Source: Daphnia carinata (taxonomy: Eukaryota). Taken from it: 64,000 nt of DNA. The stretch lies in the NCBI RefSeq assembly GCF_022539665.2, contig NC_081333.1, forward strand, positions 3,224,001 to 3,288,000, given 5' to 3'. Position 1 is the stretch's first letter. The number at the start of each line of letters is the position of its first letter. The translations under genes and the position numbers were made by a program. A model generated the notes under the pieces. It was given only the letters and a program-made list of their open reading frames with translations, ran no database searches and was not told the origin of the DNA. Positions 2,111 through 64,000 of this stretch are shown here, piece by piece.

Positions 2111-2919
2111 ATGACAGACATCAGTGCCAGCAAACGAGAATCGCTGCCTGGTTGGGAACCGGGCTCAGTTGCAACGGCTGCTGCGTTGGCTGCTGTTGCA
2201 GCCGCCTCCTCACCATCCGGCGGACCGTACCCGACTGTCGGCCTTTACTCGAATCAGTCCGGGAGTAGTGGCGGAAGCAACAGTGGAAATGGCGCCCCGC
2301 CACCTCCTCACCTTCCATCACCCTACTCGTCTTTCTCGCAACCGATCCCCTCCTCCTCTGCCTCTTCTTCAGCTCCTTATGCGCAGCCTCAAGGTATATT
2401 GCAATCTCAGTGCACCGCCCCATTATTTGTGTTGTCTAATCTTTTTCCATCCTTTTCCGTCTCCCTTTCGTAATCTTATTACCATATTCCGTTTTTGGCT
2501 CAGACTCGTGTCACGTTGGTCAATGTCCAATTGCGATTTCATGGCTACGTTCACAATATTCGTTTCATTCCTGTTCTTTATGATTGTTTAAAATTAGGTT
2601 TGCCGCAGGGCTATCCTTACCATGCATTGGAGAGCTACCCTGGCCAGCATTTGGGTTATCCATTACCCCATACGTCTCATCATCCTTATCACCATCATCA
2701 AACGCAATCATACCCTGGGTTGCCATCAAGCTCTTTGTCTCCGCAAAATTATCCGCCTCATTCCAGCATGATGGTTCATCCTTATCATCATCATCATCAT
2801 CTCTATTCACCTCAACAACCTGCAACGCCGAACCAATCACCAGGAATGGGATACACGCTGACTGTTCATCCGCAACAACAACAGCAACAACATGGTGAAG
2901 TCCACCACCAGCCCCCACA

Positions 2920-2955
<36 letters not shown>

Positions 2956-5764
2956 AGTAGTTAGTCAATCACAACCTGGATATCCATCGCTGAGTTATCA
3001 ACAAGCACCGGCTGGATCGACCCAGCAGGGTATTAGTATGCCAATATCAACGTACATCCCTCCTGTGCAGACATACGAGCCCCCTTTGGAAAGATCTGAG
3101 AATCCTCCACAAATTCAGCGACCGACGCCGATCCTTGCCGAACGGGAAGTGAATGCAAATTCCGTACACATGGTTCCTCAGACGCCGACTTCAGCGGTGC
3201 CCATATCGTTCCATCTTCAGCAACAGCAGACTTCACCCGCTCCTCCATCTCCCGGTTCTTCGGGCATGATGACACCTGGAGGAGGATCTCATCCAGACTT
3301 GGAACATGATCTCCCGCCAGAGCTGCTCCAACAGGGATGGAGAAAGATGTGGTCCAAACGAGAAAATCGAATTTATTTTTGGAACAAGACCAATGGCGAG
3401 TCACTTTGGGAAATGCCTCCCCTTCGAGCAAACGTGCGATATTGTTTATTATTTTTTTTTTTTTCTTTACTCCTGTTATCTGCGTTATCGGTGGTTTCAT
3501 AAACTATTGATTTTCGTTTAGTACGACCCGGTGTCCGACCCACTTGGTATTCAACAACCAAACCAGCAGCCTCCGGGAGCTATCAAACGGCGTGCATCTG
3601 ATGATGGGATCGGCAGTCCTTTGGCCAAACGCTTTATTCTCTCGTAATTTAAACTTGTACAGTTTTCCATTCATCAGTGTGTCACCGTTTAATCGTCTTA
3701 TAGGGGCCCGTGGGATTTGGAAGTGCCGACCAATGCCGTCGTCTTTGAAAGGAGTCCGTTGAGTTGGCCACACCCCCATCCGGATATCGAGGGCTACCGG
3801 GCAACTTTGGTTGTGAAATTGCGCCAGGCCTATCAAGAAATGTGCCATTCTAGGGAAGGTGTGTATCATGATACAACAAAAACACGTTTATGACAAGTGA
3901 AATAATAAGATTTATTTCTCACACGATAATGTGGTGAAAAATAGCAATCGACGCACCTAGAGATTCGTTTAACCGATGGCTGCTCGAGAGAAAAGTTGTT
4001 GACAGCGGCACCGATCCCCTCTTTCCCGGCCAGTGCCACCCCGAAGTTTCCCTATCGATGTATAAGGAAATTATGAACGATTTGCCCATGAAACTAGAAC
4101 GGCCAAAGTTTACGGGGGATGCGCGAAAACAGTTGTCGAAGTACGCAGAAGCCGCGAAAAAGATGATTGAAACCAGGTATTTCATTTGTTAATATTCCAA
4201 CAAACTGGTGCATCGCAATAGGCTAAATCACATTTTATTACAGGAATGTAAGCTCAGAGAGTCGTAAAATTGTCAAATGGAATGTAGAAGAAACCTTTCA
4301 GTGGTTACGACGAACTGTAGGCGCTACGTATGACGACTTTCAAGAACGGCTGGCGCACCTTAAACGTCAATGTCAGCCGCACCTGACGGAAGCTGCGAAA
4401 TCATCCGTTGAGGGCATCTGCATCAAGATGAATAATCTGTCAGCAGAATACGCAAAAAAGATACGAGATAAGCACAACGAGTTACTCAAGGAGAATGGAC
4501 TTGCCGGTAAATTTACACTTTCCTTTTTCTTAAAATTTTTATTCAAACAGACAGTTGCTTATTTAGTTTGAAAATTTTATCAGATTTGGAACCCAATGTA
4601 AACCTACTCCATCCGCGAAAAGTCTGGTGTTATCCGGTCCTCTTTGCTCTCCCATGTCCTCGATTACCGCCAGTCGAATTCCTTCCCGACAAGGACCAGA
4701 CGTTGCTACGCTACAAAGGTGATGCAGTACGAATTAACAATCTCCATTTTCAGAAACTGGTATGGTTGGATCACTTTTTTTAAGCCACCAACGTAGTAAA
4801 TTTTTTTGTCCTACTTTTTTCATTGTTGGCTCTTTCAGGAGCAACTGTATCGGTACAACTGCTTTGAGGACCGCAAATTTGAGTGGTTTTTGCCGCGAGT
4901 CTGGTGCTTACTCAAGCGCTACCAGTCCTATATGGGGGCACAGACGGGCAACGAAGGCCAGGGCACTCAGGGTGCTCTACCACTGACCGTTTTTGAGGCC
5001 CTTTACAAACACTTTGGCGTCTCTTTCGAGTGCTTCGCCTCGCCGCTCAACTGCTACTTCCGTCAATTTTCCTCCGCTTTTCCCGACACGGATGGCTACT
5101 TTGGTTCCAGAGGGTATGCGCTATTGCGTTCTCTACTCTATCAATAATTTCTTAATTTTCCCCGTGAACCTTGTAGGCCAATTCTCGAGTTTAAGCCGGT
5201 ATCAGGATCTTTTGAGGCCAATCCCCCCTTTTGCGAAGAGTTTATGGATTCGATGGTCACACATTTCGAGAAGCTTTTATCCGACTCCAGCGAACCACTG
5301 TCTTTCATTGTTTTCATACCAGAATGGCGCGAGCCAGCCCCACCTGTTCTCAAAAGACTGGAAGAGTCATCGTGGAAGAGACGTCAGGTTGTTGTGCCCA
5401 CCTTCGAACACGAATACCGACATGGTTATCAACACCTCGTCCCAAAGTAATTATTATCCTGGAATAATGACCCTTCTCTTTCATACAAAGCGTATTTTGT
5501 CTTTGTAGATCCGAAATAAATGTAAGGGCAGCACATGGGACAGTCATCGTCTGGTTACAGAACGAAGCCGGATATCAAAAATGGGGACCGACAGATGAAC
5601 GGGTAGATGCTTTACTGGAAGCTTACCGGCCTGGCCGAGAAAGAGAACGAGACCGGCAAGAGCTTCTAAGTCCTCCAAGACCTAATCAGTCACTTGATGG
5701 GCCTATTGCTAACATGTTAAATGTCAACGGTAGTGCAGCAATAGCTGGTATGAAACCTATTTGA
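2111..5764 (+). CDS. PCIF1: Phosphorylated CTD-interacting factor 1 (mRNA cap m6Am methyltransferase), multi-exon
   Basis: WW domain [36 protein letters not shown]; conserved [28 protein letters not shown]; catalytic FEANPPF (5220-5231); [11 protein letters not shown]; last exon [12 protein letters not shown]...MKPI* ending at TGA 5762-5764; short GT-AG introns. Confidence 0.93.
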
Positions 5765-6191: not shown

Positions 6192-6300
6192 ACGTGCAGT
6201 TTTATCGATCGAATTCAAATCAAAATTTTATTTGATTGAAATCGATCGAATTCAAATCAAAATTTTATTTGATTTGAATTCGATCGATAAAACTGCACGT
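6192..6300. repeat. Short palindrome with ~33-bp arms and an internal direct duplication
   Basis: acgtgcagttttatcgatcgaattcaaatcaaa ... tttgatttgaattcgatcgataaaactgcacgt; atcgatcgaattcaaatcaaaattttatttgatt occurs twice inside. Confidence 0.85.
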
Positions 6301-6591
6301 CTAGCCACTTATGGCAACCCGTTTTTCCCAAAATAAAAAATAAAAATACGGTCTTTTTTTCTCTTTTACTATGGCATATGGCTATGGCAATCCGTTTTAC
6401 ATAAAAAAATTTAAAAAAAATGGCGGAAAAAAAAAAAATCGCACTTTTTTCTCTTTTTTCTACCCGTAGCCATCTATCAGTCGGTTTCGTTATTACAGGC
6501 ATGTAAGCAATTTGAGTTAATTGTATCCCATTAGCAGTTAATTGAGTAGCGTGGCTGGAGAACAACGCGTGGCTGGAGGAACAATTGAAAA

Positions 6592-7600
6592 ATGGATAAG
6601 ATAATAAAACAAAAAAATGGTAAGTATAAACATTATTATATTGGTTTTCAATTATTAATTATTGTTTATTAGATCAAATTATGAAGCTGCAGGCCCAGTT
6701 ATTGGAACAACACAAAATATTAGATAACAAAGCTAAGGATCGTAGGCCTAACACGTAATGATTCTATTTATTTGCTTTTATTCATTCGTGTTTTGTAGCT
6801 CAAATTTTGAGTCTACAAGCTCAGCTAGGGGAAAAGAACAAATTGGAATGAAACAGTTTCCAAACAGTGAAGGAGGTTTTTCCAAACTCATGCCTAACTG
6901 AACATGAGGATGAATTGGCATTAGGTGAAGTAGTTAGGTACCTAAACTTTTCAAATAAGAATTCAAAATAAGTATAGAATTTTAACAAACAATTATTTAT
7001 TGTTTAGTTATTCAGTCTACCACCTGATAGTGTGTTAAATTTAAATTCTGTTAGTGCTGCACTAAAAGAATCGTTAGTAATAAGCTCATGCAGTGAAGGA
7101 ACTGAACAATTGTGGGACCGTATTTGGGCCGAAAATGGGTGTGGTACAGAAACCCAGAAATGGCACAAGTTCAACATGAAACATAGATTAGTTACTTTTT
7201 GGTTTTTTGTCTATCGAAAAAGTATTTTTAATGCTATTATTTTGCATTCACAGATTTTAACGGGGGATCAAATCAAGTCTGGAAGTGTTACAGGATGGAA
7301 GAGTGAGCCTACAGATGAAAAAACACTGAGAGTGCATTACCGTAAGGTGTGAGGTAAATTAATAGAGTAATGCAAATTGCCTAATGAGAAGTACCATCTT
7401 GTGTTAATGAATCCAGTACAACAGCAATCCTTTATAGTTCTGTCACAGCTAGAAGCCTCAAATAATTCTGCTTCTCTGTCTAAAGAACAACTTGTCCTTT
7501 ACGTTCAGACTGTTGGGGAAACTGGGTACTTAAATGGCCCTAAAGATGTTTTAATTTTGCTGCTATTGCAGAGATGAACATCATACATGGACTCTTTAGG
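6592..7600 (+). pseudogene. Spliced coiled-coil gene remnant in left arm of palindrome 1 (3' end approximate)
   Basis: ATG GAT AAG..AAT G|gtaagt, ~50-nt introns, exons MDKIIKQKN-DQIMKLQAQLLEQHKILDNKAKD-xQILSLQAQLGEKNKLE*...; premature TGA near 6848. Confidence 0.6.
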
Positions 7601-8065
7601 TATGAAAGGATTTTTCTTCAAATAATTTTGAATTTATGACGAAGAATTTCTCCTCCTTTTTGCCAACCAGGTCTTATCTACCAAAAAAAAATTTAACCAA
7701 TAGGAAAGGATTTTCATGTACTGGGAACACAACTATCAACAACGCAACATTCTACAGGTGCTAGTTTATCATTCAAGAGCCTTATACAATGAAGTTAATC
7801 TGCAATTTGTATGTCCTTTCCCAAGCTTCCACCAGAAGTTGAATCTATGAGTCATGTAAGTTCCATGATCAACAATTGATGTGTTTAATGGTGTTGTTTT
7901 TCTTTTCTCAATATAGGTTAATAGTAAAATTGGATCTGAAAAGATTCTTGGTTGGGGCAAGACACTGAATAAATTGTATTGATTGGATGGATGACATGAC
8001 ATTGCTATACTTAATTCGGATTCCCCAGACGGTATTTGATATTAAAAAAATTGAAGTGCATATCT

Positions 8066-8408
8066 GGGCTCCCTTCTTTTCTGAAGCCCCGTTTCCCCTT
8101 GACTCATAATAAGCCCGTAGGGGGTCATGCCCCTACTGTACGGTATATATAAAAACAACATATACCGAGGTTTGGAGGGCTCTGGCCGGAAAGGGGACGT
8201 GGGGTGCCGCTTAGTCCGATGATGTGTTCACGGAGGGTGACGTGGCTGCCCACAAATCCGAACTAAAGGTTAATCGCTCCTGTAAAAATGTTCCAAATCT
8301 TCAGCTCTTCTTCCGGCTTCTCTTAGCCAATCACCGGGTAATCTCCCCGGTGGGTCAACAAGGCAGTGTCTCCCCCTGCCTGGGTTGACGGCAACTTTTG
8401 AAAGGGCT
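8066..8408 (-). ncRNA. Candidate structured RNA of unknown class (left arm, copy 1)
   Basis: Reverse complement of 9352-9694; multiple hairpins and long-range stems. Confidence 0.45.
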
Positions 8409-8674
8409 ATTGTGCCTTTTTAAAGTTGCAAAAATAATTGTTATGTGCAGAGAATTGTCAATAAAATTTTTTTTATAAAATGTTTTTTGCAAAATTTTTT
8501 TCTTTCATTGTCTGTGTTCGCTTTGTTCACACATTACATTTATCAACTTTTTTTTTATTTAGCTTGCTCATTTCATCTTTATTGTTTATGCCACCTTTGT
8601 TCTTTATCAGCATTGTTTACTATTTATTACACTAATACATGGATATTATCTGTATTTTGTACTTGTACATTGTT

Positions 8675-8742
8675 TTATTCAGGGATCGATCCCCAGACAT
8701 TCAGCGTGCAACGCCGATGCTCTAACAATGAGCCACGAGATA
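8675..8742 (-). other. tRNA-like unit (TGC at anticodon position), degenerate
   Basis: rc: TGGCTCATTGTTAGAGC (A box/D arm), TCGGC-GTTGCAC-GCTGA anticodon arm, GGATCGATCC (B-box-like). Confidence 0.6.
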
Positions 8743-9021
8743 TATCTAAATTTTTTATCATCGCATATCATATGTTATCGTCTAGCATGTTTATGCACTT
8801 TGAATAAAACTGAAATGTTTATCTATTTTTTTCTTCATTTAGATATAGATCTTTAAACATCTCACTGCGATAACTGAACCCAGGGTTCAAACCGCAGCTG
8901 AATGCTTAAAGATCTATATCTAAATGAAGAAAAAAAATTGATAAACATATAGTTTTATTCAAAGTGAAAGATGCATAAACATCCTAGACGATAACATAAT
9001 ATGCGATAATAATAAATTAAA

Positions 9022-9088
9022 TGATTCATAGCTCAATGTTAGAGCATCGGCGTTGCACGAAATGTCTGGGTTCGATTCCCATGAGTAA
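9022..9088 (+). other. tRNA-like unit, degenerate (pseudo-tRNA or SINE head)
   Basis: TGATTCA TA GCTC AATGTTA GAGC A TCGGC GTTGCAC ... TGGG TTCGATT CCCA TGAGTAA: acceptor stem 6/7 paired, canonical A and B boxes, anticodon arm partly deleted. Confidence 0.65.
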
Positions 9089-9351
9089 AACAATGTACAA
9101 GTACAAAAATACAGATAATATCGATAAAATAAATAGAAACAATACTTACAGATAAACGATACAACGGTGGCAAAAACAATAAAGATGAATTGAGCAAGCT
9201 AATAAAAAAAAAGTTGATAAATGTAATGTGTGAACAAAGCGAACACAGACAATGAAAGAAAAAATTTTTGCAAAAAACATTTTATAAAAAAAATTTTATT
9301 GACAATTCTCTGCACATAACAATTATTTTTGCAACTTTAAAAAGGCACAAT

Positions 9352-9694
9352 AGCCCTTTCAAAAGTTGCCGTCAACCCAGGCAGGGGGAGACACTGCCTT
9401 GTTGACCCACCGGGGAGATTACCCGGTGATTGGCTAAGAGAAGCCGGAAGAAGAGCTGAAGATTTGGAACATTTTTACAGGAGCGATTAACCTTTAGTTC
9501 GGATTTGTGGGCAGCCACGTCACCCTCCGTGAACACATCATCGGACTAAGCGGCACCCCACGTCCCCTTTCCGGCCAGAGCCCTCCAAACCTCGGTATAT
9601 GTTGTTTTTATATATACCGTACAGTAGGAGCATGACCCCCTACGGGCTTATTATGAGTCAAGGGGAAACGGGGCTTCAGAAAAGAAGGGAGCCC
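9352..9694 (+). ncRNA. Candidate structured RNA of unknown class (right arm, copy 1)
   Basis: GC-rich island in AT-rich context; stems gtcaac/gttgac, aggcag/ctgcct, caccggg/cccggtg, gccggaa/ttccggc, ttagttcgg/tcggactaa, cggtatat/atataccg, gtagg/cctac, gggcttc/ggagccc; G-U pairs favour this strand. Confidence 0.5.
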
Positions 9695-10159
9695 AGATAT
9701 GCACTTCAATTTTTTTAATATCAAATACCGTCTGGGGAATCCGAATTAAGTATAGCAATGTCATGTCATCCATCCAATCAATACAATTTATTCAGTGTCT
9801 TGCCCCAACCAAGAATCTTTTCAGATCCAATTTTACTATTAACCTATATTGAGAAAAGAAAAACAACACCATTAAACACATCAATTGTTGATCATGGAAC
9901 TTACATGACTCATAGATTCAACTTCTGGTGGAAGCTTGGGAAAGGACATACAAATTGCAGATTAACTTCATTGTATAAGGCTCTTGAATGATAAACTAGC
10001 ACCTGTAGAATGTTGCGTTGTTGATAGTTGTGTTCCCAGTACATGAAAATCCTTTCCTATTGGTTAAATTTTTTTTTGGTAGATAAGACCTGGTTGGCAA
10101 AAAGGAGGAGAAATTCTTCGTCATAAATTCAAAATTATTTGAAGAAAAATCCTTTCATA

Positions 10160-11170
10160 CCTAAAGAGTCCATGTATGATGTTCATCTCTGCAATAGCAG
10201 CAAAATTAAAACATCTTTAGGGCCATTTAAGTACCCAGTTTCCCCAACAGTCTGAACGTAAAGGACAAGTTGTTCTTTAGACAGAGAAGCAGAATTATTT
10301 GAGGCTTCTAGCTGTGACAGAACTATAAAGGATTGCTGTTGTACTGGATTCATTAACACAAGATGGTACTTCTCATTAGGCAATTTGCATTACTCTATTA
10401 ATTTACCTCACACCTTACGGTAATGCACTCTCAATGTTTTTTCATCTGTAGGCTCACTCTTCCATCCTGTAACACTTCCAGACTTGATTTGATCCCCCAC
10501 TAAAATTCTGTGAATGCAAAATAATAGCATTAAAAATACTTTTTCGATAGACAAAAAACCGAAAAGTAACTAATCTATGTTTCATGTTGAACTTGTGCCA
10601 TTTCTGGGTTTCTGTACCACACCCATTTTCGGCCCAAATACGGTCCCACAATTGTTCAGTTCCTTCACTGCATGAGCTTATTACTAACGATTCTTTTAGT
10701 GCAGCACTAACAGAATTTAAATTTAACACACTATCAGGTGGTAGACTGAATAACTAAACAATAAATAATTGTTTGTTAAAATTCTATACTTATTTTGAAT
10801 ACTTATTTGAAAAGTTTAGGTACCTAACTGTGTTCACCTAATGCCAACTTCATCCTCATGTTCAGTTAGAGATGAGTTTTGAAAAACCTCCTTCACTGTT
10901 TGGAAACTGTTTCATTCCAATTTGTTCTTTCCCCTAGCTGAGCTTGAAGACTCAAAATTTGAGCTACAAAACACAAATGAATAAAAGCAAATAAATAGAA
11001 TCATTACGTGATAGGCCTACGATCATTAGCTTTGTTATCTAATATTTTGTGTTGTTCCAATAACTGGGCCTGCAGCTTCATAATTTGATCTAATAAACAA
11101 TAATTAATAATTGAAAACCAATATAATAATGTTTATACTTACCATTTTTTTGTTTTATTATCTTATCCAT
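10160..11170 (-). pseudogene. Spliced coiled-coil gene remnant in right arm of palindrome 1 (3' end approximate)
   Basis: Mirror image of 6592-7600, with the same premature stop. Confidence 0.55.
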
Positions 11171-11439
11171 TTTTCAATTGTTCCTCCAGCCACGCGTTAT
11201 TCTCCATCCACGTTCCTGAACTAACTGCGAATGGCATCCAATGGACTGAAATTGCCTACGCCAGTAATAACGAGTCTGAGCGGTAGATGGCTGCGTGTCG
11301 GAAAAAAAGAAAAAAGTGTGATTTTTTTTTTTTTTTGGCGAAATTTTTTTTTTTTTTTGTGTAAAACGGATTGCCATATTTCGTCATCTACCGGTCACGT
11401 TAATTCTCTAAATACACAAAAAAAATTTTAAGCCCAACT

Positions 11440-12210
11440 AAATAAGCCCGACTTTACTCGGTCGGGTTTAAAAAAATTTTCTGCAAAAATTGAAGCTAAT
11501 CAGAATTGGTTGAATATCACAGGATATACTCAAAATTGAATGCTGATTCCGGGGAAATTGCTACTTTTTTCACTGAGTTAATCGTTTTTGAAGTAAACCG
11601 AATATTTGACGCAGTGCTAGCGCGCCAGTACGCTACAGCGCTAGCGCGATGCAGCAAAATATTAGTTGAGTGTATGTAGAGAACTAACTATATATCTGGC
11701 CGGTAGATGGCGATAGCAGTGGGTTGAAAATAAGCCCGACAAAAAAAATTAGCCCGAACTGTTAGCGCAACATGTGTATTTTACATTTATTTCAAAAACC
11801 GTAAAGCAAATGCAAAAATAAACTTGATTTTCATGATTTCCATTCAATTACGAATCGAAATGATGTATTTTACGTGAAATTTAAATTTGGGCCAAAGATG
11901 AAAAAGTGGGAAGGCTATATAGCCTTCTCACTTTTGTCAAAATCGGCCAAAAACGAAATCTCACGGAATTGGATGAAAATCGTACCGTATAATCAAAATT
12001 TAACGATGATTTCGATTCTGTGATTGGTTTTGTCGCTAAGCCATCCGTTTTTGAAATAAATTTAGAAAAGAAAAATAAACTTGGTTTTCTTGATTTTTGA
12101 ATAGAAATCATTTTAAAATAAATGATTTTCACTTAAAATAGTGAAGTTTAAATTTTTCCAACATTGAAAAGTGGGAAGAGTATAGGCTTCCCCAACGAAA
12201 CGAAATTTCG
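11440..12210. repeat. Second repeat family (AAGCCCGAC hairpin plus GCAAAAATAAACTTGATTTT / GAAAAAGTGG modules)
   Basis: 11812-11910 aligns by eye with 63856-63952; both loci also carry an aagcccgac...gtcgggytt hairpin (11441, 63712). Confidence 0.7.
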
Positions 12211-23690: not shown

Positions 23691-24806
23691 ATGCATTCGG
23701 AAGCTGCTGTAGTAATCACAACATTCGTGATTATTGCAGCACTTTTAATTGCCCAAACATCATCTCTTCCAACCACGAAAAAAGCATTGGACATCAGATC
23801 ACCATCGACTACCACGACGGGTACGAATGACGTCACAAGTGTCATCTCCAGCAACAAAGCAGCCATTCCCCCGACATCGAATTCCATTGACAACAAAGGC
23901 TACATTCGAGTCAATCTCGACGACGGCAATCTTCAAGAATTGTCTGCTTTTGCTACGGGGGAGATTCGATTACGTCAGAAATCCGCAGATCTCTCGTTGA
24001 AGGGCGTCTCGTTCGCTTTGAAACAAATTTCTACATCACTCGCAGAGAGCAACTACAAGATGACGTTGGTGCTGGCTAACAAGGACGAGAAACGATCCCA
24101 ATTTTTAATTTGCAACGTCGACATCGTTCACGATGCATCCGCAAATCAGAGGCGAGTGAAAACAGATTGCCTAAGGGCTAACATTGTGACCGGCATTCAG
24201 TCGATACGTCCCGACGGCATTTTCCAGGAGGATGCCGATCTTGCGGCAGCTGTTTTCGCCGCAAACGAACTCAATCGCCAGAGCAACAATTCATCTCCGC
24301 TGACTCTCGTGCATTACGTGGCTTCCGGCTCGCACGAAATGATATCCGGCACTGAATACAAATTGCACATGCAGGTGCAGACGAGCCCGAAAGATGACAA
24401 GGTTTTGCTTTGCGAAACGAGCGTTTTACCGAGAAGCCCCAAGATGCTGCACGGAACTGAGTGTGGCACTCTAGCGGGAAAAGACGATAGCGGATCTTAC
24501 AGCGCAGCTGACGTCAAGGATGCGGATGTGATAGAGACGGCTGAATTTGCTGCCAATGCCCTGATGGAGCGGCAAGTTGCAGAAGCACCTGATGAATTGA
24601 TTCCAGTGAAAGTTGCGAGAGTTTGGAAGAAACCTGTTCGCGGAATTCAACGACGACTTCGTATGACATTGAGCGACGATGCCGAAGGTGGCCAGCCGTC
24701 TTCGTACTGCCTCGCAGTCGTCTTTGAAGACAGGCTGTCTGGCGAATATGAACTGGTTACCGGAGCTGGAAACACTGTCTGTTCGCCTACGCCACCTACC
24801 GTTTAA
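23691..24806 (+). CDS. Secreted protein with three cystatin-like domains, single exon
   Basis: 371-aa ORF, hydrophobic signal peptide, three repeats of (A.FA..el) ... degenerate QxVxG/NY strand ... C...C. Confidence 0.7.
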   Translation: MHSEAAVVITTFVIIAALLIAQTSSLPTTKKALDIRSPSTTTTGTNDVTSVISSNKAAIPPTSNSIDNKGYIRVNLDDGNLQELSAFATGEIRLRQKSADLSLKGVSFALKQISTSLAESNYKMTLVLANKDEKRSQFLICNVDIVHDASANQRRVKTDCLRANIVTGIQSIRPDGIFQEDADLAAAVFAANELNRQSNNSSPLTLVHYVASGSHEMISGTEYKLHMQVQTSPKDDKVLLCETSVLPRSPKMLHGTECGTLAGKDDSGSYSAADVKDADVIETAEFAANALMERQVAEAPDELIPVKVARVWKKPVRGIQRRLRMTLSDDAEGGQPSSYCLAVVFEDRLSGEYELVTGAGNTVCSPTPPTV

Positions 24807-49461: not shown

Positions 49462-52400
49462 ATGATGCAGCCTCGCGACGCTCACGACGACGGCGATTGC
49501 GCAATGGAAGAGGCAGGCGGTGTACTACACTCGTCGCCCATGCCGGCCGTCATGACTCTGACGACCAGCTCGAAGACGAACGCCTCTTGCCCATCATCGT
49601 CCAATCAGCAAACAAACGAGCAGATCAGGCACCGTCAGAGGACGGCCTCGCCGCTCTCTGCAGCCGCCGCCGATGCGCTCGTCGGGGCCAGGAAACGCAA
49701 AGCCATCAGAGTGGTCAAACATCAGCAGGTCAGTCCTCCTCCTTCCCCCCCCCCCTCCCAACTCTATTTCGCTTAATTATTATGGAATATTCATCCAAAG
49801 AAATATGGGCATTTGCATTTGTTTTTGCCTCACGCTCGTTTGCTCGTAATCGATTCAGACGTTTTCATTTGCATTGCTAATGATGTCCAAATAAAAAATA
49901 AATAATAATTGAATAGCAGGCGTCGAGTCCGATGAAAGCGGATCCCGAGCCGGAAGAGCCTATCGTTTTGACGAGAACGAGCCACCACTTGGCCGGATTC
50001 AGTGGAAACAACAAGACGGCCGAGCAAGGCAACACGTCGATGGACACGGGCGTGTCATCGGACCTGTCTGAATCGAGGCCCAGCCTGGCCGGCGAGGAAG
50101 ACGAGGAGGAGGAAGACGTGGAAATTCTGAACGAAGACGACGAACGTTCGCACGGATCGGCCGGAGAGGAAGAATCCGGCGGCGAGTTTTATCAATCGGC
50201 CGCCAGTCATCGCAATCATCATCACCGCCGCCGCATCATCGGCCGCCATTCGGAGGATTCCGAGAGCAACGATTCCGGTAGCGGACACGAAGACGGCCGG
50301 CGTTTGAGACAGAAGAATCGGCGCACGATGAGACAGCGGCGCGATCAAGGAAGGAAACGCCAGCGGACAGCGGATGAGATGATAGACGAGGATGATCATG
50401 AGATGGATCATTGCGGCGCTGATGCGGACGACTCGCGCCGCTGTCACCCGATCGGCGAGCAGAAGACGAGAATTTCGATACTCCAAGACGCGAGTAGCGT
50501 CGGTAGCGTCGACTTCTCTTGCCAGCGAGCCACGTCCAACATGATCCATCCGGCGACCTTGGCCCGTCCCGTCCTTTCTTCCGCCCACTTGGCGGCCGTG
50601 GGATCGCCACACTTGGCCGTCGAGAGCATCTCTTCTTCGAAATCGTCCGCTCCGCTGGCCGTGGTGGAGACGGGCAGCGGTGAGGCGGTCCGTGCGCCCT
50701 TTGCGACGGCGGCGACATCTAGCGGTCGGTACGCTAACCACTTGTTTCAACACGACGAGCTCCTCACCAACCCGCCGGAAGAGTACAAGAACGAGGAGGA
50801 CGATCCTTTCTCCGCCGTCCTGCGCGAAATGAAAATCAAAGGAGAATTCCCCTGCAGACTCTGCGAAGCCGTTTTCCCCAATCTGCGCGCTCTTAAAGGT
50901 CAGTTTTCAAATTTTATTTGTTTTCTTCTTATCAATGCGACAGGAAGGAAGTTGTGAAAACGGTGCGTTATCAATTCTAATCGTGTTGTTCAAACTCTTG
51001 CCAGAATTAAACACGTTAAGGAAAAAAAAATCCTTACAGTTAATGACGCTGTTACTATAATTACAAATAATATTATCTGGCGTTAGCCAAGCGTGGGGCG
51101 CAGGCGCAGATATTTGTGTCTCGTGCACCGGAAATGCGTTAGATAACCGGCAGAAAAGAGAAAAAAAAAAAAAAATCAAATAAAATCTTGCAGTCTCACA
51201 TTTACAGACGCATAACAACAAAATAGAAACTAAGACGTAATGTGGGGGATCACGCGAGATGCAAGAGGAAGACGATGGGGTTAGGGAGAACGAGATCATC
51301 TTCCTTCCTTAAACGAATTGATTGATTAAATAATCGATTCTATTTTCTTTTTCTATTTTTTTTTTTTTTTAATTTGAACCAAAAAAAAAAAAAAAAATGG
51401 AATTCAGGTCACAACCGGAACCATCTGACTCACGCTCCTTACCGGTGCAACATGTGCCCGAGCACGAGCCACGATAAGGGCGCTCTGATTCGGCACATGC
51501 GGACGCACAACGGCGAGCGGCCCTACGAATGTCGCGACTGCCAGTACGCCTTCACCACCAAGGCCAATTGCGAGAGGCATTTGCGCAACCGGCACGGAAA
51601 GGCCAGCCGGGAGGCTGTTAGGGCCTCGATCGTTTACCACTTGAGCGAGGACGCCAACCGGGCGCTGGGCGGCGATAATTCCGACCATTCCGGCAGTTAC
51701 TACCAGGGCCACAACGACCAATCAGCTCTCGATCTAAGCGCCGATCGCGACGAGTCCATCGACGGCGAGGAGGAGGAGGAGTCCACTGATTATCCGTCGG
51801 AAGAGGAAGCTGAAGATGAACGTGGCGCGGCCATCGTCGAACAAGACGGGCCGTTAGATTTGACGGTGGACGTGTTGGATTTGCGGAAGCGGCGGCAGGA
51901 AACGAAAGCCCCGCCGTCGAATTTCAATCCCGTGGCCGTCGTTCCAGTCACGTCGGCGTCGCATCATCAGAACGCCGTTCCGGCTCAGACTGTCGCTCCG
52001 ACGGCCGCCGTTGCGCCCGCCGTCCAGACTTCAGTTGCCGACGTCAAACCGGCCGTACCTTTCGCGCCGCCCTATTTCGGATCGTCTTACCCGGGCACGG
52101 TGGCCTCGCTGGCCGGCTTGCCTTTCTTCTATCCCGGCCTGGGCGGGGCCAATTATTCCGCATTTTTCGAATCGAAACTGGTCGAAATGGGCCATCAAAA
52201 TCCGGCTGTTGATCTGTCCGCCTTGGCTTTGGCCGCTGCTCATCACGACGCGCTGCGTCAGGCCCAGCAAGTGCAGAAACCTCAGCCGAATCATCCGCCG
52301 CCGGCCTCGTTGGTCGAAGGGCTCTTAATGCCCGCTGCTAAAAAATTCAGCGCTGACCCCGCCGAGAACGTCCGTCCCGTCCCGATGCCCATCCCGACGA

Positions 52401-54632
52401 GTCCCGCCAAATTGGAGTCTAAAAAATCGAGCCATCATCACAGCGGTTCGTCCGCGCAGGCCGTTAACGATCCGGGCGTCAAGATGGTGCTCAAGAACGG
52501 CGTGCTGGTCAAGAAGCAGAAACAGCGTCGCTACCGGACGGAGCGTCCGTTCGGCTGCGAGCACTGCACGGCCCGTTTCACGCTGCGCTCCAACATGGAG
52601 CGACACATCAAACAGCAACACCCGGACATTTGGTCGACCCGTCCTCGAGGGCATCGAAGATCGGCCTGCGCATTAACCAAAGCGGCCGCTCTGCCCACGA
52701 TGGTGGACCTGAAAGGCCACATGGTCAACGCGATGCCGGCCCTCGCCCCGCAAATGGTGCAAGAGGCTTCCGTCAAGCTGGAAATCGGCGGAGGGAAAGC
52801 GCCCATCTCGGAGCAAGTCCGCCAGGCCGTCCAGCAGAAATTGAAGAAGCGCCGCAACAGCGAGCATTCCGAAGACGAGGAAGAGGACGATGATGAGGAA
52901 GAAGAAGAAGACGACGATGGTAATTTGGTCATTGATATTGAGCGGAAAGATCACGGCCCAACTGGCCAGAGAATTGTGGCCAGCAAGCCGGAACCGGCCG
53001 ATTTGGCCAGCGTTTCCAAATTGCTGACCAACGCCGTGGCCCAGAGTTTCCAGCAGTATTTCAATCAGCACCGCGACGCCGAGCTGGAGAGCTCGGTGAC
53101 GAGCGACAAGATGAACCGGGCCAGCCCGTCTGAAGGCAACACTGACGAGATGGACGAAGGTGAATGCACGAGCATCAGCGACGGCCATTCGGGCGGCAGC
53201 GATTTCGGCGGGAACCGCTCGGACAGCGGCGGCGGACAGGCGGTGAAAGGGAAGAAGAAGAGCGCTTATTCGAACGCTCCCCATCGGGTGAGTTGCCCGT
53301 ATTGTTCGCGCAAGTTTCCGTGGACCAGCTCGCTGCGACGTCACATCCTGACGCACACGGGCCAGAAACCGTACAAGTGTCCGCAGTGCCCGCTCTGGTT
53401 CACAACGAAATCCAACTGCGACCGCCATCTGTTGCGCAAACACGGAAACCATCTGCACGGCGGAGGCGGCGAGACGGCCAACAACAACAGCAACAACAGC
53501 GTGGCCAGCAGCAACGCGGCGGCCGATAATTCGCGCAACGTTCCAGACCGGCCGTACAAGTGCGCCCTGTGTCCGTCGTCCACCTTCGCCACGTCGGACA
53601 ATCTGAAGAAGCACGTCGACAACAAACACTGCCCCGCCCATCACGGCGGAATGAGCAGCCCGGAGTCGATCGCGGCGGCCGACGGCGAGTCTGAGAAAGT
53701 GCGCCATCATCATCAGTCCAGCAATCCAGCCAGTCCGGGCCCTCAGGCGGGCGACGGCAATTCGGCCGCTGGGGGCCCTTTGGGCGGCCGGCGAGCAACT
53801 GCCTTTCAAATGCCATTTGTGCGACGACTCTGGAGGCTACGCCGAGAGACAGGAAGTGCTGGATCACCTCCAGCGGGACCACACGGAAGAGTTCCATGAC
53901 CTCGTAGGCAAAGTCGGCGCTTTGGTGGCTGAGCCGCCGCCAATGCCGTCCGCTCCGACTTCGGACGAAGGCGAAGACTACGATTCCGTCCGCGGCAAAT
54001 TCCCAGATTACGTCAACAGAAAGGTAAAACATTTTTCGCAACCCTCAAATAGATCAAGAAAGAAAAAAAAAACAAAAAAAAAGAATTACAGTTTATAATA
54101 ATAATAATACATTTTTAATTTTTTTTTAAATAATTAGGTGATTTGTGCCTTTTGTTTGCGACGCTTCTGGTCGGCCGAAGACCTACGACGTCACATGAGG
54201 ACGCACAGTGGCGAGCGGCCATATCAGTGCGACGTGTGCTCGCGTCGCTTCACCTTGAAACATTCCATGTTGCGACACAGACGGAAGCACGGCGGATCCG
54301 GTCACGCGGAAGAGAGCGACGAAGAGGAAGAAGAAGAAGAGGAAGAAGAGGATGGATCGATCAGTTCGGATCATCGGGCCAATCAGCGCCACGCTCGTCG
54401 GGAATCGTCCAGGTCTTCGGCCAAGGCCAAAGTGCGCATGCAGGCTGCCCTCTGGAGCGGCTCCAAGTCCGTTAAATCGACGGGCGGTATGAGACTCCGC
54501 GGACCGTGCGGCTCAGATCTGATCGGCAACTTGCTCGGCATTCCAGACACGTCGCTAGTAGAGCAGCTCATGTCCAAACCGGCCGACGATGCCGCTCGTC
54601 TTCTGGGCGTCACCGGTGGCAATCGCGTTTGA
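49462..54632 (+). CDS. RREB1: Ras-responsive element-binding protein 1 / hindsight (pebbled) C2H2 zinc-finger transcription factor
   Basis: Exons 49462-49728, 49920-50898, 51408-54023 (one apparent frameshift near 53780), 54138-54632; characteristic fingers [76 protein letters not shown] CtBP-type motif; DLASVSKLL box. Confidence 0.92.
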
Positions 54633-58240: not shown

Positions 58241-58712
58241 CTAAAAAAAAAAACGTAGTTTTATCTTAAATCTGCTGATAATTTGAAGAAGGTGCTCCGG
58301 TTCCACGGTGTCATCGTTTCACAGGATGACGCAGCACTTTCTTTTCTCGTTGATAAAAAACCACTACAATATTTAGTTTTCCGATAAAGATTCTCTTTAG
58401 AGTCTAGATGATTGCTGAATGTACCACCGACACCATTGTGACGGATATGTCTGCCAACAGATGACGCCTTCATCGAAAAATTAAAACCCTTTACCGCTTT
58501 GATATGGCAATCCGTTTAACACAAAAAAAAAAAAAAAATTTCGCCAAAAAAAAAAAAAAAATCACACTTTTTCTTTTTTTTCCGACACGTAGCCATCTAC
58601 CGCTCAGACTCGTTATTACTGGCGTAGGCAATTTCAGTCCATTGGATGCCATTCGCAGTTAGTTCAGTAGCGTGGATGGAGAATAACGCGTGGCTGGAGG
58701 AACAATTGAAAA

Positions 58713-59770
58713 ATGGATAAGATAATACAACAAAAGGATGGTAAGTATAAACATTATTATATTGGTTTTCAATTATTAATTATTGTTTATTAGATCAAAT
58801 TATGAAGCTGCAGGCCCAATTATTGGAACAACACAAAATATTAGATAACAGCAAAGCTAAGGATGGTAAGGCCGTAATGATTCTATTTATTTGCTTTTAT
58901 TCATATGTGTTTTGTAGCTCAAATTTTGAGTCTACAAGCTCAGCTAGGGGAAAAGAACAAATTGGAACGGAACAGTTTCCAAACAGTGAAGGAGGTTTTT
59001 CAAAACTCTTCTCTAACTGAACATGAGGATGAGTTGGCATTAGGCGAACACAGTCAGGTACCTAAACTTTTCAAATAAGAATTCAAAATAAGTATAGAAT
59101 TTTAACAAACAATTATTTATTGTTTTGTTATTCAGTCCACCACCTGACAGTGTTTTAAGTTAAATTCTCTTAGTGCTGCACTAAAAGAATTGTTAGTAAT
59201 AAGTCCATGCAGCGACGGAAGTGAACAATTGTGGGACCGTATTTGGGCTGAAAAATGGGTGTGGTAAGGAAACCCAGAAATAGCACGAGTTCAACGTAAA
59301 ACATGAATTAGGTACTTTTCGGTTTTTTGTCTATCGAAAAAGTATTTTTAATGCTATTATTTTGCATTCACAGAATTTTAGTGGGGAATCAAGTGAAGTC
59401 TGAAAGTGTTACAGGATGGAAGAGTGAGCCTACAGTTGAAAAACACTGAAAGCGCATTACCATTAAGGTATGAGGTAAAGTAATAGAGTATGCAAATTGT
59501 CTAATGAGAAGTACCATCTTGTGTGAATGAATCCTGTGTAACAGCAATCTTTTATAGTTCTGTCACAGCAATCTTTTATAGTTCTGTCACAGCAATCCTT
59601 TATAGTTCTGTCACAGCTAGAAGCCTCAAATAATTCTGCTTCTCTTGCTAAAGAACAACTTGTCCTTTACGTTCAGAGTGTTGGTGAAGCTGGGTACTTA
59701 AATGGCCCTAAAGATGTTTCATTTCGTTGGCATTGCAGCGATGAACATCATACATGGACTTTTTAGGTAT
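58713..59770 (+). pseudogene. Spliced coiled-coil gene remnant, left arm of palindrome 2 (3' end approximate)
   Basis: MDKIIQQKD|DQIMKLQAQLLEQHKILDNSKAKD|AQILSLQAQLGEKNKLERNSFQTVKEVFQNSSLTEHEDELALGEHSQ| is open across three GT-AG-joined exons; later exons disrupted. Confidence 0.6.
59541..59617 (+). repeat. 24-bp tandem triplication
   Basis: acagcaatc(t/c)tttatagttctgtc x3; single copy in the other three arms. Confidence 0.9.
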
Positions 59771-60230
59771 GAAAGGAATTTTCTTGAAAATTTTTTGAAT
59801 TTATGACAAAGCATTTCTCCTGCTTTTTGCCAACCATGTCTAATCTAAAAAAAAAAATTTTATCCAATAGGAAAGGATTTTCAGCATACTGGGAACACAA
59901 CTATCAACAATGCAACATTCTAGGGGTGCTATTTTATCATTTAAGAGCCTTATACAATGATTTTCATCTGCAATTTGTATGGCCTTTCCCAAGCTTCTGC
60001 CAGAAATTGAATCTATAAGTCATGTAAGTCACATGAGCAACAATTGAGATGCTTAATGGTGTTTTTCTTTTCTCAGCATAGGTTAATAGTAACATTGGAT
60101 CTGAAAAGATTCTTGGTTGGGGCAAGACACTGAATAAATTGTAATGATTGAATGGATGACATGACATTTCTATACTTAATTTGGATTCCCGAGACGGTAT
60201 GTTATATTTAAAAAATTGAAGTGCATATCT

Positions 60231-60573
60231 GGGCTCCCTTCCTTTCCGTAGCCCCGTTTCCCCTTGACTCGTAATAAGCCCGTAGGGGGTCATGCCCCTA
60301 CTGTACGGTATATATAAAAACAACATATACCGAGGTTTGGAGGGCTCTGGCCGGAAAGGGGACGTGGGGTGCCGCTTAGTCCGATGATGTGTTCACGGAG
60401 GGCGACGTGGCTGCCCACAAATCCGAACTAAAGGTTAATCGCTCCTGTAAAAATGTTCCAAATCTTCAGCTCTTCTTCCGGCTTCTCTTAGCCAATCACC
60501 GGGTAATCTCCCCGGTGGGTCAACAAGGCAGTGTCTCCCCCTGCCTGGGTTGACGGCAACTTTTGAAAGGGCT
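60231..60573 (-). ncRNA. Candidate structured RNA (left arm, copy 2)
   Basis: Near-identical to 8066-8408. Confidence 0.45.
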
Positions 60574-60798
60574 ATTGTGCCTTTTTAAAGTTGCAAAAAT
60601 AATTGTGATGTGCAGAGAATGGCCAATAAATTTTTTTTTATAAAATGTTTTTGCAAAATTTTTTTCTTTCATTGTCTGTGTTCACACATTACATTTATCA
60701 ACTTTTTTTTTATTTCAATTCACCTTTATTGTTTATGCCACCTTTGATTGTAAGCATTGGTCCCATTGGTTTATCGTTTATCTGTAAACATTCAATTA

Positions 60799-60866
60799 TT
60801 ATCCAGGGATCGAACCCTGGATGTTCGGCATACCGCGCCGATGCTATACCAATGAGCCATGAATCA
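60799..60866 (-). other. tRNA-like unit with a different anticodon-loop sequence (GCGGTAT)
   Basis: rc: TGATTCA TG GCTCATTGGTATAGC A TCGGC-GCGGTAT-GCCGA ACAT CCAGGGTTCGATCCCTGG. Confidence 0.6.
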
Positions 60867-61114
60867 TATGATGTCAGGTTAGCTTTTTTCTAGTCACTTG
60901 CGGACTTGCATTTACACTTTGAATAAAATTGAAACGTAGATCTTTATATATCTACTAAGGTTTGAACCCAGGGTAACAGTTACCGCAGCTGAATGCTCTA
61001 CCACAGAGCTATGAACCTTATGAAAGTTATAAAAAGATAAATATATACTTGTGAAAGACTACATAAACATCCTATACTATAACATATGATATGCGATAAT
61101 AGATATGATAGATA

Positions 61115-61185
61115 TATCTCGTGGCTCAATGTTAGAGCATCGGCGTTGCACGCTGAATGTCTGGGGATCGATTCCCATACCAGTA
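61115..61185 (+). other. tRNA-like unit (TGC at anticodon position), degenerate
   Basis: GTGGCTCAATGTTAGAGCA TCGGC-GTTGCAC-GCTGA ATGTCTGGGGATCGATTCCCA. Confidence 0.6.
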
Positions 61186-61500
61186 AAACAATATACAAGT
61201 ATAAAATTACTTCAGAAAATATCCAGGTATTACACGCTGTTCCTTGTCTAAGTTAAAGAATTCAAGAAGTGTAATAAGTACTAATTGAATACTAACAGAT
61301 AAGCGATACAATGGTGGCAAAAACCATAAAAATGAATTGAGCAAGCTAAATAATAAAAAAAGTTGATAAATGTAATGTGTGAACACAGCTAACACAGACA
61401 ATGAAAGAAAAAAATTTTGCAAAAAACATTTTATAAAAAAAAATTTATTGACAATTCTCTGCACATCACAATTATTTTTGCAACTTTAAAAAGGCACAAT

Positions 61501-61843
61501 AACCCTTTCAAAAGTTGCCGTCAACCCAGGCAGGGGGAGACACTGCCTTGTTGACCCACCGGGGAGATTACCCGGTGATTGGCTAAGAGAAGCCGGAAGA
61601 AGAGCTGAAGATTTGGAACATTTTTACAGGAGCGATTAACCTTTAGTTCGGATTTGTAGGCAGCCACGTCGCCCTCCGTGAACACATCATCGGACTAAGC
61701 GGCACCCCACGTCCCCTTTCCGGCCAGAGCCCTCCAAACCTCGGTATATGTTGTTTTTATATATACCGTACAGTAGGGGCATGACCCCCTACGGGCTTAT
61801 TACGAGTCAAGGGGAAACGGGGCTTCAGAAAAGAAGGGAGCCC
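61501..61843 (+). ncRNA. Candidate structured RNA (right arm, copy 2)
   Basis: Near-identical to 9352-9694. Confidence 0.45.
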
Positions 61844-62304
61844 AGATATGCACTTCAATTTTTTAAATATCAAATACCGTCTGGGGAATCCAATTAAGTA
61901 TAGAAATGTCATGTCATCCATCCAATCAATACAATTTATTCAGTGTCTTGCCCCAACCAAGAATTTTTCAGATCCAATGTTACTATTAACCTATATTGAG
62001 AAAAGAAAAACAACCATTAAACATATCAACTGTTGATCATGTAACTTACATGACTCATAGATTCAACTTCTGGTGGAAGCTTGGGAAAGGACATACAAAT
62101 TGCAGATTAAAATCATTGTATAAGGCTCTTGAATGATAAACGAGCACCTGTACAATGTTGCATTGTTGATAGTTGTGTTCCCAGTACATGAAAATCCTTT
62201 CCTATTGGATAAAATTTTTTTTTTTAGATTAGACATGGTTGGCAAAAAGCAGGAGAAATGCTTTGTCATAAATTCAAAACTATTTGAAGAAAAATCCTTT
62301 CATA

Positions 62305-63319
62305 CCTAAAGAGTCCATGTATGATGTTCATCTCTGCAATGGCAGCAAAATTAAAACATCTTTAGGGCCATTTAAGTACCCAGTTTCCCCAACACTCTGA
62401 ACGTAAAGGACAAGTTGTTCTTTAGACAGAGAAGCAGAATTATTTGAGGTTTCTAGCTGTGACAGAACTATAAAGGATTGCTGTTGTACTGGATTTATTA
62501 ACACAAGATGGTACTTCTCATTAGACAATGTGCATACTCTATTACTTTACCTCATACCTTAATGGTAATGCACTCTCAGTGTTTTTTCATCTGTAGGCTG
62601 ACTCTTCCATCCTGTAACACTTCCAGACTTGATTTGATCCCCCATTAAATTCTGTGAATGCAAAATAATAGCATTAAAAATACTTTTTCAATAGACATAA
62701 AACCGAAAAGTACCTAATCCATGTTTCATGTTGAACTTGTGCCATATCTTGGTTTCCGTACCACACCCATTTTCGGCCCAAATACGGTCCCACAATTTGT
62801 TCACTTCCTTCACTGCATGGGCTTATTACTAACAATTCTTTTTGTGCAGCACTAACAGAATTTAAATTTAACACACTGTCAGGTGGTAGACTGAATAACT
62901 AAACAATATATAATTGTTTGTTAAAATTCTATACTTATTTTGAATTCTTATTTGAAAAGTTTAGGTACCTGACTGTGTTCGCCTAATGCCAATTCATCCT
63001 CATGTTCAGTTAGAGAAGAGTTTTGAAAAACCTCCTTCACTGTTTGGAAACTGTTCCGTTCCAATTTGTTCTTTTCCCCTAGCTGAGCTTGTAGACTCAA
63101 ACTTTGAGCTACAAAACACAAATGAATAAAAGCAAATAAATAGAATCATTATGTATTAGGCCTTACCATCCTTAGCTTTCCTGTTATCTAATATTTTGTG
63201 CTGTTGCAATAATTGAGCCTGCAGGTCCATAATTTGATCTAATAAACAATAATTAATAATTCAAAACAAATATAATAATGTTTATACTTACCATCCTTTT
63301 GTTGTATTATCTTTTCCAT
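62305..63319 (-). pseudogene. Spliced coiled-coil gene remnant, right arm of palindrome 2 (3' end approximate)
   Basis: Mirror of 58713-59770; same GT-AG exon structure. Confidence 0.55.
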
Positions 63320-63699
63320 TTTTCAATTGTTCCTCCAGCCACGCGTTATTCTCCATCCACGCTACTGAACTAACTGCGAATGGCATCCAATGGACTAATA
63401 ATGAGTCTGAAGATTGCCTAAAAAAAGAAAAAAGTGTGATTTTTTTTTTTTTGGCGAAATTTTTTTTTTTTTTTTATGTAAAACGGATTGCCATACTTTG
63501 ATTGTTTTATTTATGAACTGCAAAACCAACAGGAAAACTGATATTGTTTTTGAAATAAGCATTAAATTTTGATTAAATTCCACGAGTTTTTTAGATTTCC
63601 AAGAGATGTCAAACAAAAGTGGGAAGGCTGCGATTCATTTTTCAAGTTCATTTTTGCATTTTTTTTTTGAAATATTCGTAAAAAACAGAGGGTGCGCTA

Positions 63700-64000
63700 A
63701 GAGGTCGGACAAATAAGCCCGACCCTCTATGTGTCGGGCTTATGTTTCTAGCCAAACATTTTGACAAAACTACTTGAAATTCAATGCAAAAATAAACAGT
63801 TATTTTAAAACTATATTGAATATTGGGCTGTAGCGTTCAAACCACAAACCCAATGCAAAAATAAACTTGATTTTCGTGGTTTCCATTCAATTAAGAATCG
63901 AAATCATGTATTTTAAATGAAATTTAAATTTTGGCCAAAAATGAAAAAGTGGAAAGCAAAAATAAACTTGATTTTCATGATTTCCATAATCAATTTTAAC
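63700..64000. repeat. Second repeat family, related to 11440-12210; runs off the window end
   Basis: ATAAGCCCGAC-loop-GTCGGGCTTAT hairpin and repeated GCAAAAATAAAC(T/A) modules. Confidence 0.7.

Follow-up and report, generated by a model that had tools for sequence, protein, structure and literature searches.

The analysed DNA (64,000 nt of Daphnia carinata contig NC_081333.1, hereafter the window) contains two palindromes of ~5 kb, copy A (6383-11378) and copy B (58503-63495), which are about 88% identical to one another and carry TATGG..CCATA at all four of their ends. Copy B is bordered on both sides by a 6-bp direct duplication, CTTTGA (58497-58502 and 63496-63501). Inspection of the element borders identified no target-site duplication for copy A, the left end of which is rearranged, and such a duplication is thus present in one of the two copies. 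To the left of copy A (6192-6345) lies a palindrome of 110 bp, followed by an extra terminus-like sequence, TATGGCAACCCG, at 6310, and this arrangement may explain the absent duplication. Ends of the type TA..TA or TAYGG..CCRTA, together with 6-bp duplications, are given as hallmarks of IS3EU transposons in the accessible text of PMC10045372 and PMC12730594.

Every arm carries an intron-rich gene (with short GT-AG introns) directed toward the centre of its element. In copy A this gene was located at 6592-7318 (left arm, forward strand) and, by comparison of the arms, at 10442-11170 (right arm, reverse strand), while in copy B the same comparison placed it at 58713-59436 (left arm, forward strand) and 62587-63319 (right arm, reverse strand); stops or frameshifts break all four copies. 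When one arm exon was employed as a query, it matched 14 protein clusters among 27 candidates (114-162 aa; 83-93% identical), all of which are labelled Daphnia carinata and, judging from these matches, the arm gene is a member of a multicopy family of this species. Additionally, a profile search with the arm protein returned 10 proteins, eight of which were looked up (four from D. magna, one from D. sinensis, one from D. carinata and two unnamed). Exon 4 of the arm gene matches the D. magna protein P0017 (E 1e-7), the continuation of which is similar to rva_4 integrase-type transposases at their helix-turn-helix N-terminus (TM 0.70-0.73, both being predicted models). P0017 has no Pfam match, and a search for a longer homologue of it returned none; a GCR1_C lead for the arm protein (score 0.77) was dropped as too weak. 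An integrase-like DDE transposase was not found in the arms, the arm protein having no Pfam match and being linked to such enzymes indirectly, via P0017, and the elements were therefore filed as a non-autonomous IS3EU derivative. The arm gene is probably a truncated, transposase-derived gene in such an element. Further GT-AG intron/exon-like blocks were noted past the stop codon at 7319-8030 and in the mirror regions, and these probably represent the decayed remainder of a longer gene; a post-stop segment (10273-10395) is present in related organisms in public sequencing runs.

The centres of the two elements (8680-9089 and about 60796-61175) each contain two to three degenerate tRNA-like units. 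One of these, at 9022-9089 on the forward strand, scored 28.8 bits against the Rfam tRNA model (cut-off 29; E 0.003) and faces outward, head-on to the direction of the arm transcript, and a second outward-facing unit lies at 8680-8735 on the reverse strand (Rfam tRNA E 0.18). The centre also holds a hairpin of ~115 nt at 8823-8939. The outward tRNA-like units may block read-through between the converging arms. Elsewhere in the window, host genes at 2495-5670, 23691-24806 and 51374-53899 encode, respectively, a WW-domain protein that looks like PCIF1, a protein containing the SQAPI domain of protease inhibitors and a zinc-finger protein of the C2H2 type. GGTAGATGGC motifs resembling a CTCF site occur at 11280-11295, near the element end, and at 11700-11715 in the flank.

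A conserved block in all four arms and its homologues

The block under study, a putative structured RNA module of ~345 nt, lies about 1.7 kb inward from the nearer element end. In the right arm of copy A it spans 9363-9706 on the reverse strand, with its 5' end at about 9706 and an extra hairpin that extends it to 9330. Alignment of the arms, combined with the model, placed the remaining modules at 8054-8397 (A left arm, forward strand), 60219-60562 (B left arm, forward strand) and 61512-61855 (B right arm, reverse strand). An earlier note on this DNA had located one copy of such a block in each arm, and these four locations were borne out. The same note had remarked that the arms differ little here, as was indeed observed: 7 of 347 ungapped columns are variable in the block, whereas the gene has 145 variable columns out of 1445 (Fisher p 8e-8), and pairwise divergence of the arms amounts to 0.3-1.7% in the block against 4.9-8.1% in the gene for five of the six pairs. 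Gene divergence between the two arms of copy A is just 1.0%, and these arms are 100% complementary across 1306 nt, gene sequence included; being homogenised over this length, they do not represent independent copies, and gene conversion thus contributes to the identity of the arms. The A/B and B-left/B-right comparisons display the same contrast, with 1.2-1.7% in the block (0.9% in one A/B pair) and 5-8% in the gene. Low divergence furthermore runs on for about 150 nt into the AT-rich side (6/149 columns). The block is selectively conserved while the arm gene decays.

A metagenome scan with a single 20-mer identified 12 loci (L001-L012) that possess the core of the block. Two of these, L009 and L010, are full length and about 70-71% identical to the block of the window, and alignment of the metagenome loci with the arm is confined to the block, the rest of the arm being unmatched. 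Identity to L010 is highest in the core nearest the gene (9643-9706, reverse strand), where 61 of 64 columns are the same and which thus forms a near-invariant 5' core, and is about 50% in the variable hairpins. L011 (2139-2423) retains the 5' two-thirds of the module with a different 3' domain, and L003 (1455-1556) retains only the 5' core of ~100 nt, partial forms which suggest that the putative RNA is modular. A second, degenerate partial copy of the 5' core was noted in L004 (647-702; E 5.5e-6). The flanks of the 12 loci fall into several unrelated groups, with a gradual decay of flank similarity, and none of the 70 selected open stretches of these loci reached the Pfam cut-off. Neither IS3EU ends nor homology to the arm protein were found in these short loci, and the association with IS3EU is therefore drawn from the window.

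Of 24 public runs, all of them contigs of guessed or unknown type with at most 0.23 of the words matched, eight from related organisms were examined, and their cover was concentrated on about 9327-9716. In one run the depth of the block was 2e4-1e5, compared to at most 536 elsewhere in the arm; this depth is not a copy number, and it suggests that the block belongs to a high-copy family. Viral contigs (searched with three patterns), phages and plasmids yielded no homologue of the block, and three prokaryotic matches were discarded as bare 18-mers with no model score.

The decamer AATAAGCCCG of the core was found seven times in the window, where 0.09 matches are expected. Three of these are extra matches in flanking DNA (11441, 11729 and 63712), none more than 360 bp from the right end of one of the two elements, and no others occur elsewhere in the window. 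These flanking copies fall in a hairpin motif that belongs to a different repeat (the stretch 11796-11913 is similar to 63839-63956), so that one and the same repeat family adjoins both elements.

Predicted fold, strand and splice-like motifs

The earlier note had proposed a set of nested helices on the outward-reading strand. Its complementary segments can be read in the sequence of the window, for which single-sequence folding is indeed stronger outward (z -3.35) than inward (z -1.44), but two of its named helices, the closing helix AGCCCTTTC and the inner helix TTAGTTCGG/TCGGACTAA, are absent from L009, L010 and L011, and the T-run that it described past the last hairpin has a counterpart of at least four T in only one of the 12 homologous loci. 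Nor was the choice of the outward strand borne out. L010 folds with z -0.72 outward and z -4.87 inward (L009, L011 and L001 fold weakly on both strands), and RNAalifold applied to four full-length sequences gave -69.7 inward versus -58.7 outward, with 11 of 66 inward pairs changed on both sides as against 7 of 59 outward pairs. The direction of single-base changes favours the same strand: where a pair is Watson-Crick in one or more of the sequences, the variants comprise 11 G·U and one A·C on the inward strand (p 0.006). About ten alleles from the public runs, mapped to the helices by hand, are likewise G·U inward and A·C outward, three of the inward G·U pairs being consecutive in the last hairpin, and the three stem polymorphisms of the window arms (9509, 9522 and 9629) are G·U-compatible inward. 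Since a change on one side of a pair tends to yield G·U when read inward, the RNA would be sense to the arm gene, and the block is predicted to fold as RNA on this strand.

Covariation, by which the earlier note had suggested that its proposal be judged, was assessed on an inward structure of nine helices in ten sequences. The nine helices are retained, with 97% of 312 cells paired, and 8 of 46 pairs are changed on both sides (3/500 shuffles), compared to at most one in slid controls; the covariation score is 0.119, compared to at most 0.033 in those controls. As the structure was picked from the very sequences on which it was assessed, few in number and related (about four lineages), the controls lean in its favour, and this covariation is to be read as support and not as proof. 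Helix 6 contains two mismatches in the window lineage. Several crossing helices are possible in the 5' core, none of which ever varies, and these consequently receive no support from covariation. The 5' heptamer of the module can pair with its 3' end and recurs directly past that end in L010, with near-repeats in L009 and in the window, so that two alternative closing stems could form.

A splice-donor-like motif, G/GTAT, is located 22 nt 5' of the RNA (9723-9728, reverse strand; mirrors at 8032, 60197 and 61877) and may be used as a donor. Its distance to the start of the RNA is 22 nt in all four arms and 21 nt in seven of the 12 loci (11 of 16 sequences); weaker GT motifs are present at 23 nt in L005 and at 19 nt in L011, and L001, L006 and L003 lack the motif among the 16 sequences inspected, a loose donor motif within a span of 8 nt having a background of 0.08. 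Additionally, GTAT occupies the donor position in all 15 of the displayed loose ends of the public runs. On the other side of the RNA, inspection of the sequence identified a TGCAG that could serve as 3' splice site, with AATAAA after it, at 9294-9310 (reverse strand). Such an acceptor is plausible in the window, is strong only in L010 and appears as a CTG variant in L009, and in the public runs the loose ends show no clear 3' splice site. Nor did these runs contain a joint spanning the candidate intron, their organisms having flanks too different from those of the window. Given a donor-like motif that recurs and an acceptor that is uneven, the chances that the block lies in an intron are about even. 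In its arrangement the RNA looks Pol II-made and intron-borne.

Tests against known RNA classes

No Rfam family matched at its gathering score, and nothing credible for the block emerged at relaxed thresholds. A protein-coding exon was rejected on account of its broken frame, the window and L010 being separated by indels of 4, 3, 16, 2, 2, 2 and 1 nt. The description of the block as a conserved structured RNA of no known class, put forward in the earlier note, thus holds by covariation, by the lack of an Rfam match and by the lack of a coding signal. Of the three hypotheses offered there, a scaffold RNA fits best; no ribozyme family was matched, and a replication signal fits the strand bias of the G·U pairs poorly.

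Self-cleaving ribozymes and introns of groups I and II had no Rfam match, and telomerase template, hammerhead, HDV, twister, group I P/Q/R/S and 7SK were rejected on inspection by eye. An omega-RNA of the OMEGA type was rejected since the RNA is internal to the element and flank similarity decays gradually; similarly, no Pfam match to IscB, TnpB or Fanzor was obtained with the arm protein or the 70 selected open stretches of L001-L012. An outward-reading Pol III gene or tRNA-headed SINE is disfavoured by the presence of a T4 run in only one of the 12 loci and by internal T5 runs in the window, and a Pol III-like terminator reading of the T-run fails on that same count. The tRNA-like head that a SINE would require is about 270 nt away, and was not found in L001-L012. 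A type-3 Pol III promoter reading outward (with the PSE/TATA spacing of Drosophila) is absent in L009 and L010, and the stretch concerned reads inward as an acceptor and poly(A)-like sequence.

RNase P RNA merits separate mention. Searches with RNaseP_nuc and RNase MRP models returned no match at E up to 10 on stretches of 366 and 351 nt, with filters in Infernal that could lose a very remote relative. Nuclear RNase P RNA is characterised by a CR-I/CR-V P4 pseudoknot beside P1 and by CR-II/III T-loops, according to the accessible part of PMC10966300. The CR-I/CR-V P4 pair was not recognisable by eye in the alignment of the homologues.

On its sequence, the block belongs to an unclassified structured RNA family, which in the window is carried by IS3EU-type transposons. 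Among the titles and abstract openings surveyed, none reports an RNA of this kind from IS3EU elements or from Daphnia, Repbase and most subscription papers lying outside this scope. Both the RNA family and its setting are considered new, less so if the RNA is an offshoot of RNase P RNA.

Possible roles and relation to known systems

The reading that we tentatively favour, short of an even chance, is that of a Pol II-made and probably intron-released RNA which acts in cis as a protein-binding scaffold and aids the movement of the element or its escape from silencing. The arm promoter would drive transcription inward, through the gene and into the module, and a stable RNA would be obtained either by splicing from the GT located 21-22 nt upstream or by nuclease trimming to the closing 5'/3' stem. 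The invariant 5' core would then bind a protein, encoded by the element or by the host, and the nascent RNA would be tethered to its own locus, such that transposition or survival would be more frequent for copies whose RNA is intact. Tethering of this kind would explain retention of the RNA in dead, non-autonomous copies; since a trans-acting RNA would not be retained by such copies if it brought them no benefit in cis, a cis-acting RNA is favoured. A bolder claim, which we consider improbable, is that IS3EU transposition depends on the RNA as an obligatory cofactor that partners an animal DDE transposase and perhaps steers target choice; the extra matches of the core decamer AATAAGCCCG beside the elements are relevant here.

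Four other explanations were weighed against the cis-acting scaffold. The block could descend from an intron-embedded RNase P RNA (RPR) copy whose catalytic signature disappeared after its capture, which dispersed along with transposons and which may still bind Pop/Rpp proteins. Its size, closing 5'/3' stem and donor-like motif agree with this, and the helix order in its 5' two-thirds may recall the RPR layout P3-P8-P9-P10/11-P12, but the RNase P and MRP models did not match, no CR-I/CR-V pair could be made out by eye, the loops that would correspond to CR-II/III differ between homologues, and the block has three 3' hairpins where RPR has one. Crustacean RPR genes are intronic and Pol II-dependent, have switched from one recipient gene to another and are ten in number in D. 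pulex, as stated in the accessible part of PMC4287351, a precedent that speaks for such an origin; taken together, we view it as rather unlikely. A self-processing or mobile intron, in which a ribozyme of an unfamiliar type would cleave, circularise or reverse-splice so that a GT-[RNA]-AG unit enters unrelated genes, would account for the observation that similarity between loci with unrelated flanks starts near the donor (L005/L009 and L009/L011) and stops near the acceptor (L009/L010). The alternative closing stems permitted by the repeated 5' heptamer and the several crossing helices possible in the invariant core also suit such an intron; however, no Rfam ribozyme or intron family was matched, the crossing helices never vary and so lack covariation support, and no empty site was seen, making this explanation unlikely.

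The position of the block, sense to the gene, past its stop codon and ahead of AATAAA, would equally suit a 3'-UTR stability or processing element (of the nuclease-block or triple-helix type) that protects the mRNA of the element and is not released, as would the peak of conservation at the 5' core with its pyrimidine-rich loop. We nevertheless hold this to be quite unlikely, for the block is kept though the gene is dead, has unrelated sequence after it in other loci and, as a 3'-UTR element, would leave the fixed upstream donor-like motif unexplained. Finally, the block might be a relic without current function, homogenised by gene conversion among many copies, as the identity of A-left and A-right over 1306 nt (gene sequence included), the low divergence reaching into the AT-rich flank and the depth of one run, suggestive of very many copies, would allow. 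Conversion alone cannot yield conservation across lineages with compensatory and G·U-biased changes, and a relic is accordingly very unlikely.

Animal cut-and-paste DNA transposons are not known to require anything beyond their ends and a transposase. A selected, large folded RNA in dead, non-autonomous copies and across lineages with unrelated flanking genes would point to an RNA step that has gone unrecognised in the life of these transposons, or else to intron-borne RNAs of a new class. The RNA is multicopy in Daphnia, a laboratory genus, and short enough for direct probing and assay.

Several known systems bear comparison with the block. The omega-RNA/HEARO RNAs of OMEGA systems (IscB, TnpB, Fanzor) are transposon-borne structured RNAs of a few hundred nt located beside an element gene, as is the block, which differs from them in lacking a RuvC/HNH nuclease, a guide derived from the flank and a HEARO match. 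Retrozymes and the HDV-like and hammerhead ribozymes of retroelements are multicopy structured RNAs in mobile DNA, a description that also applies to the block, although the latter has no Rfam ribozyme match and its host is a DNA element with terminal inverted repeats. The intron-embedded RNase P RNA of insects and crustaceans shares with the block a size of about 340 nt, a closing stem, a multicopy state in Daphnia and a sense orientation inside Pol II genes, in different host genes (accessible part of PMC4287351), the intron placement of the block being a candidate one; the block in turn has neither an Rfam match nor a recognisable CR-I/CR-V core, has apparently far more copies and is transposon-borne. 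Compared with IS3EU/GingerRoot transposons, the elements of the window are non-autonomous and fully palindromic, have no DDE core, possess a tRNA-like centre and carry a conserved structured RNA, a feature that goes unmentioned in the accessible text of PMC12730594 and PMC10045372. They resemble these transposons in their TAYGG..CCRTA terminal inverted repeats and 6-bp duplication, as described in those same sources, and in an arm gene related to a protein with an integrase-type N-terminus.
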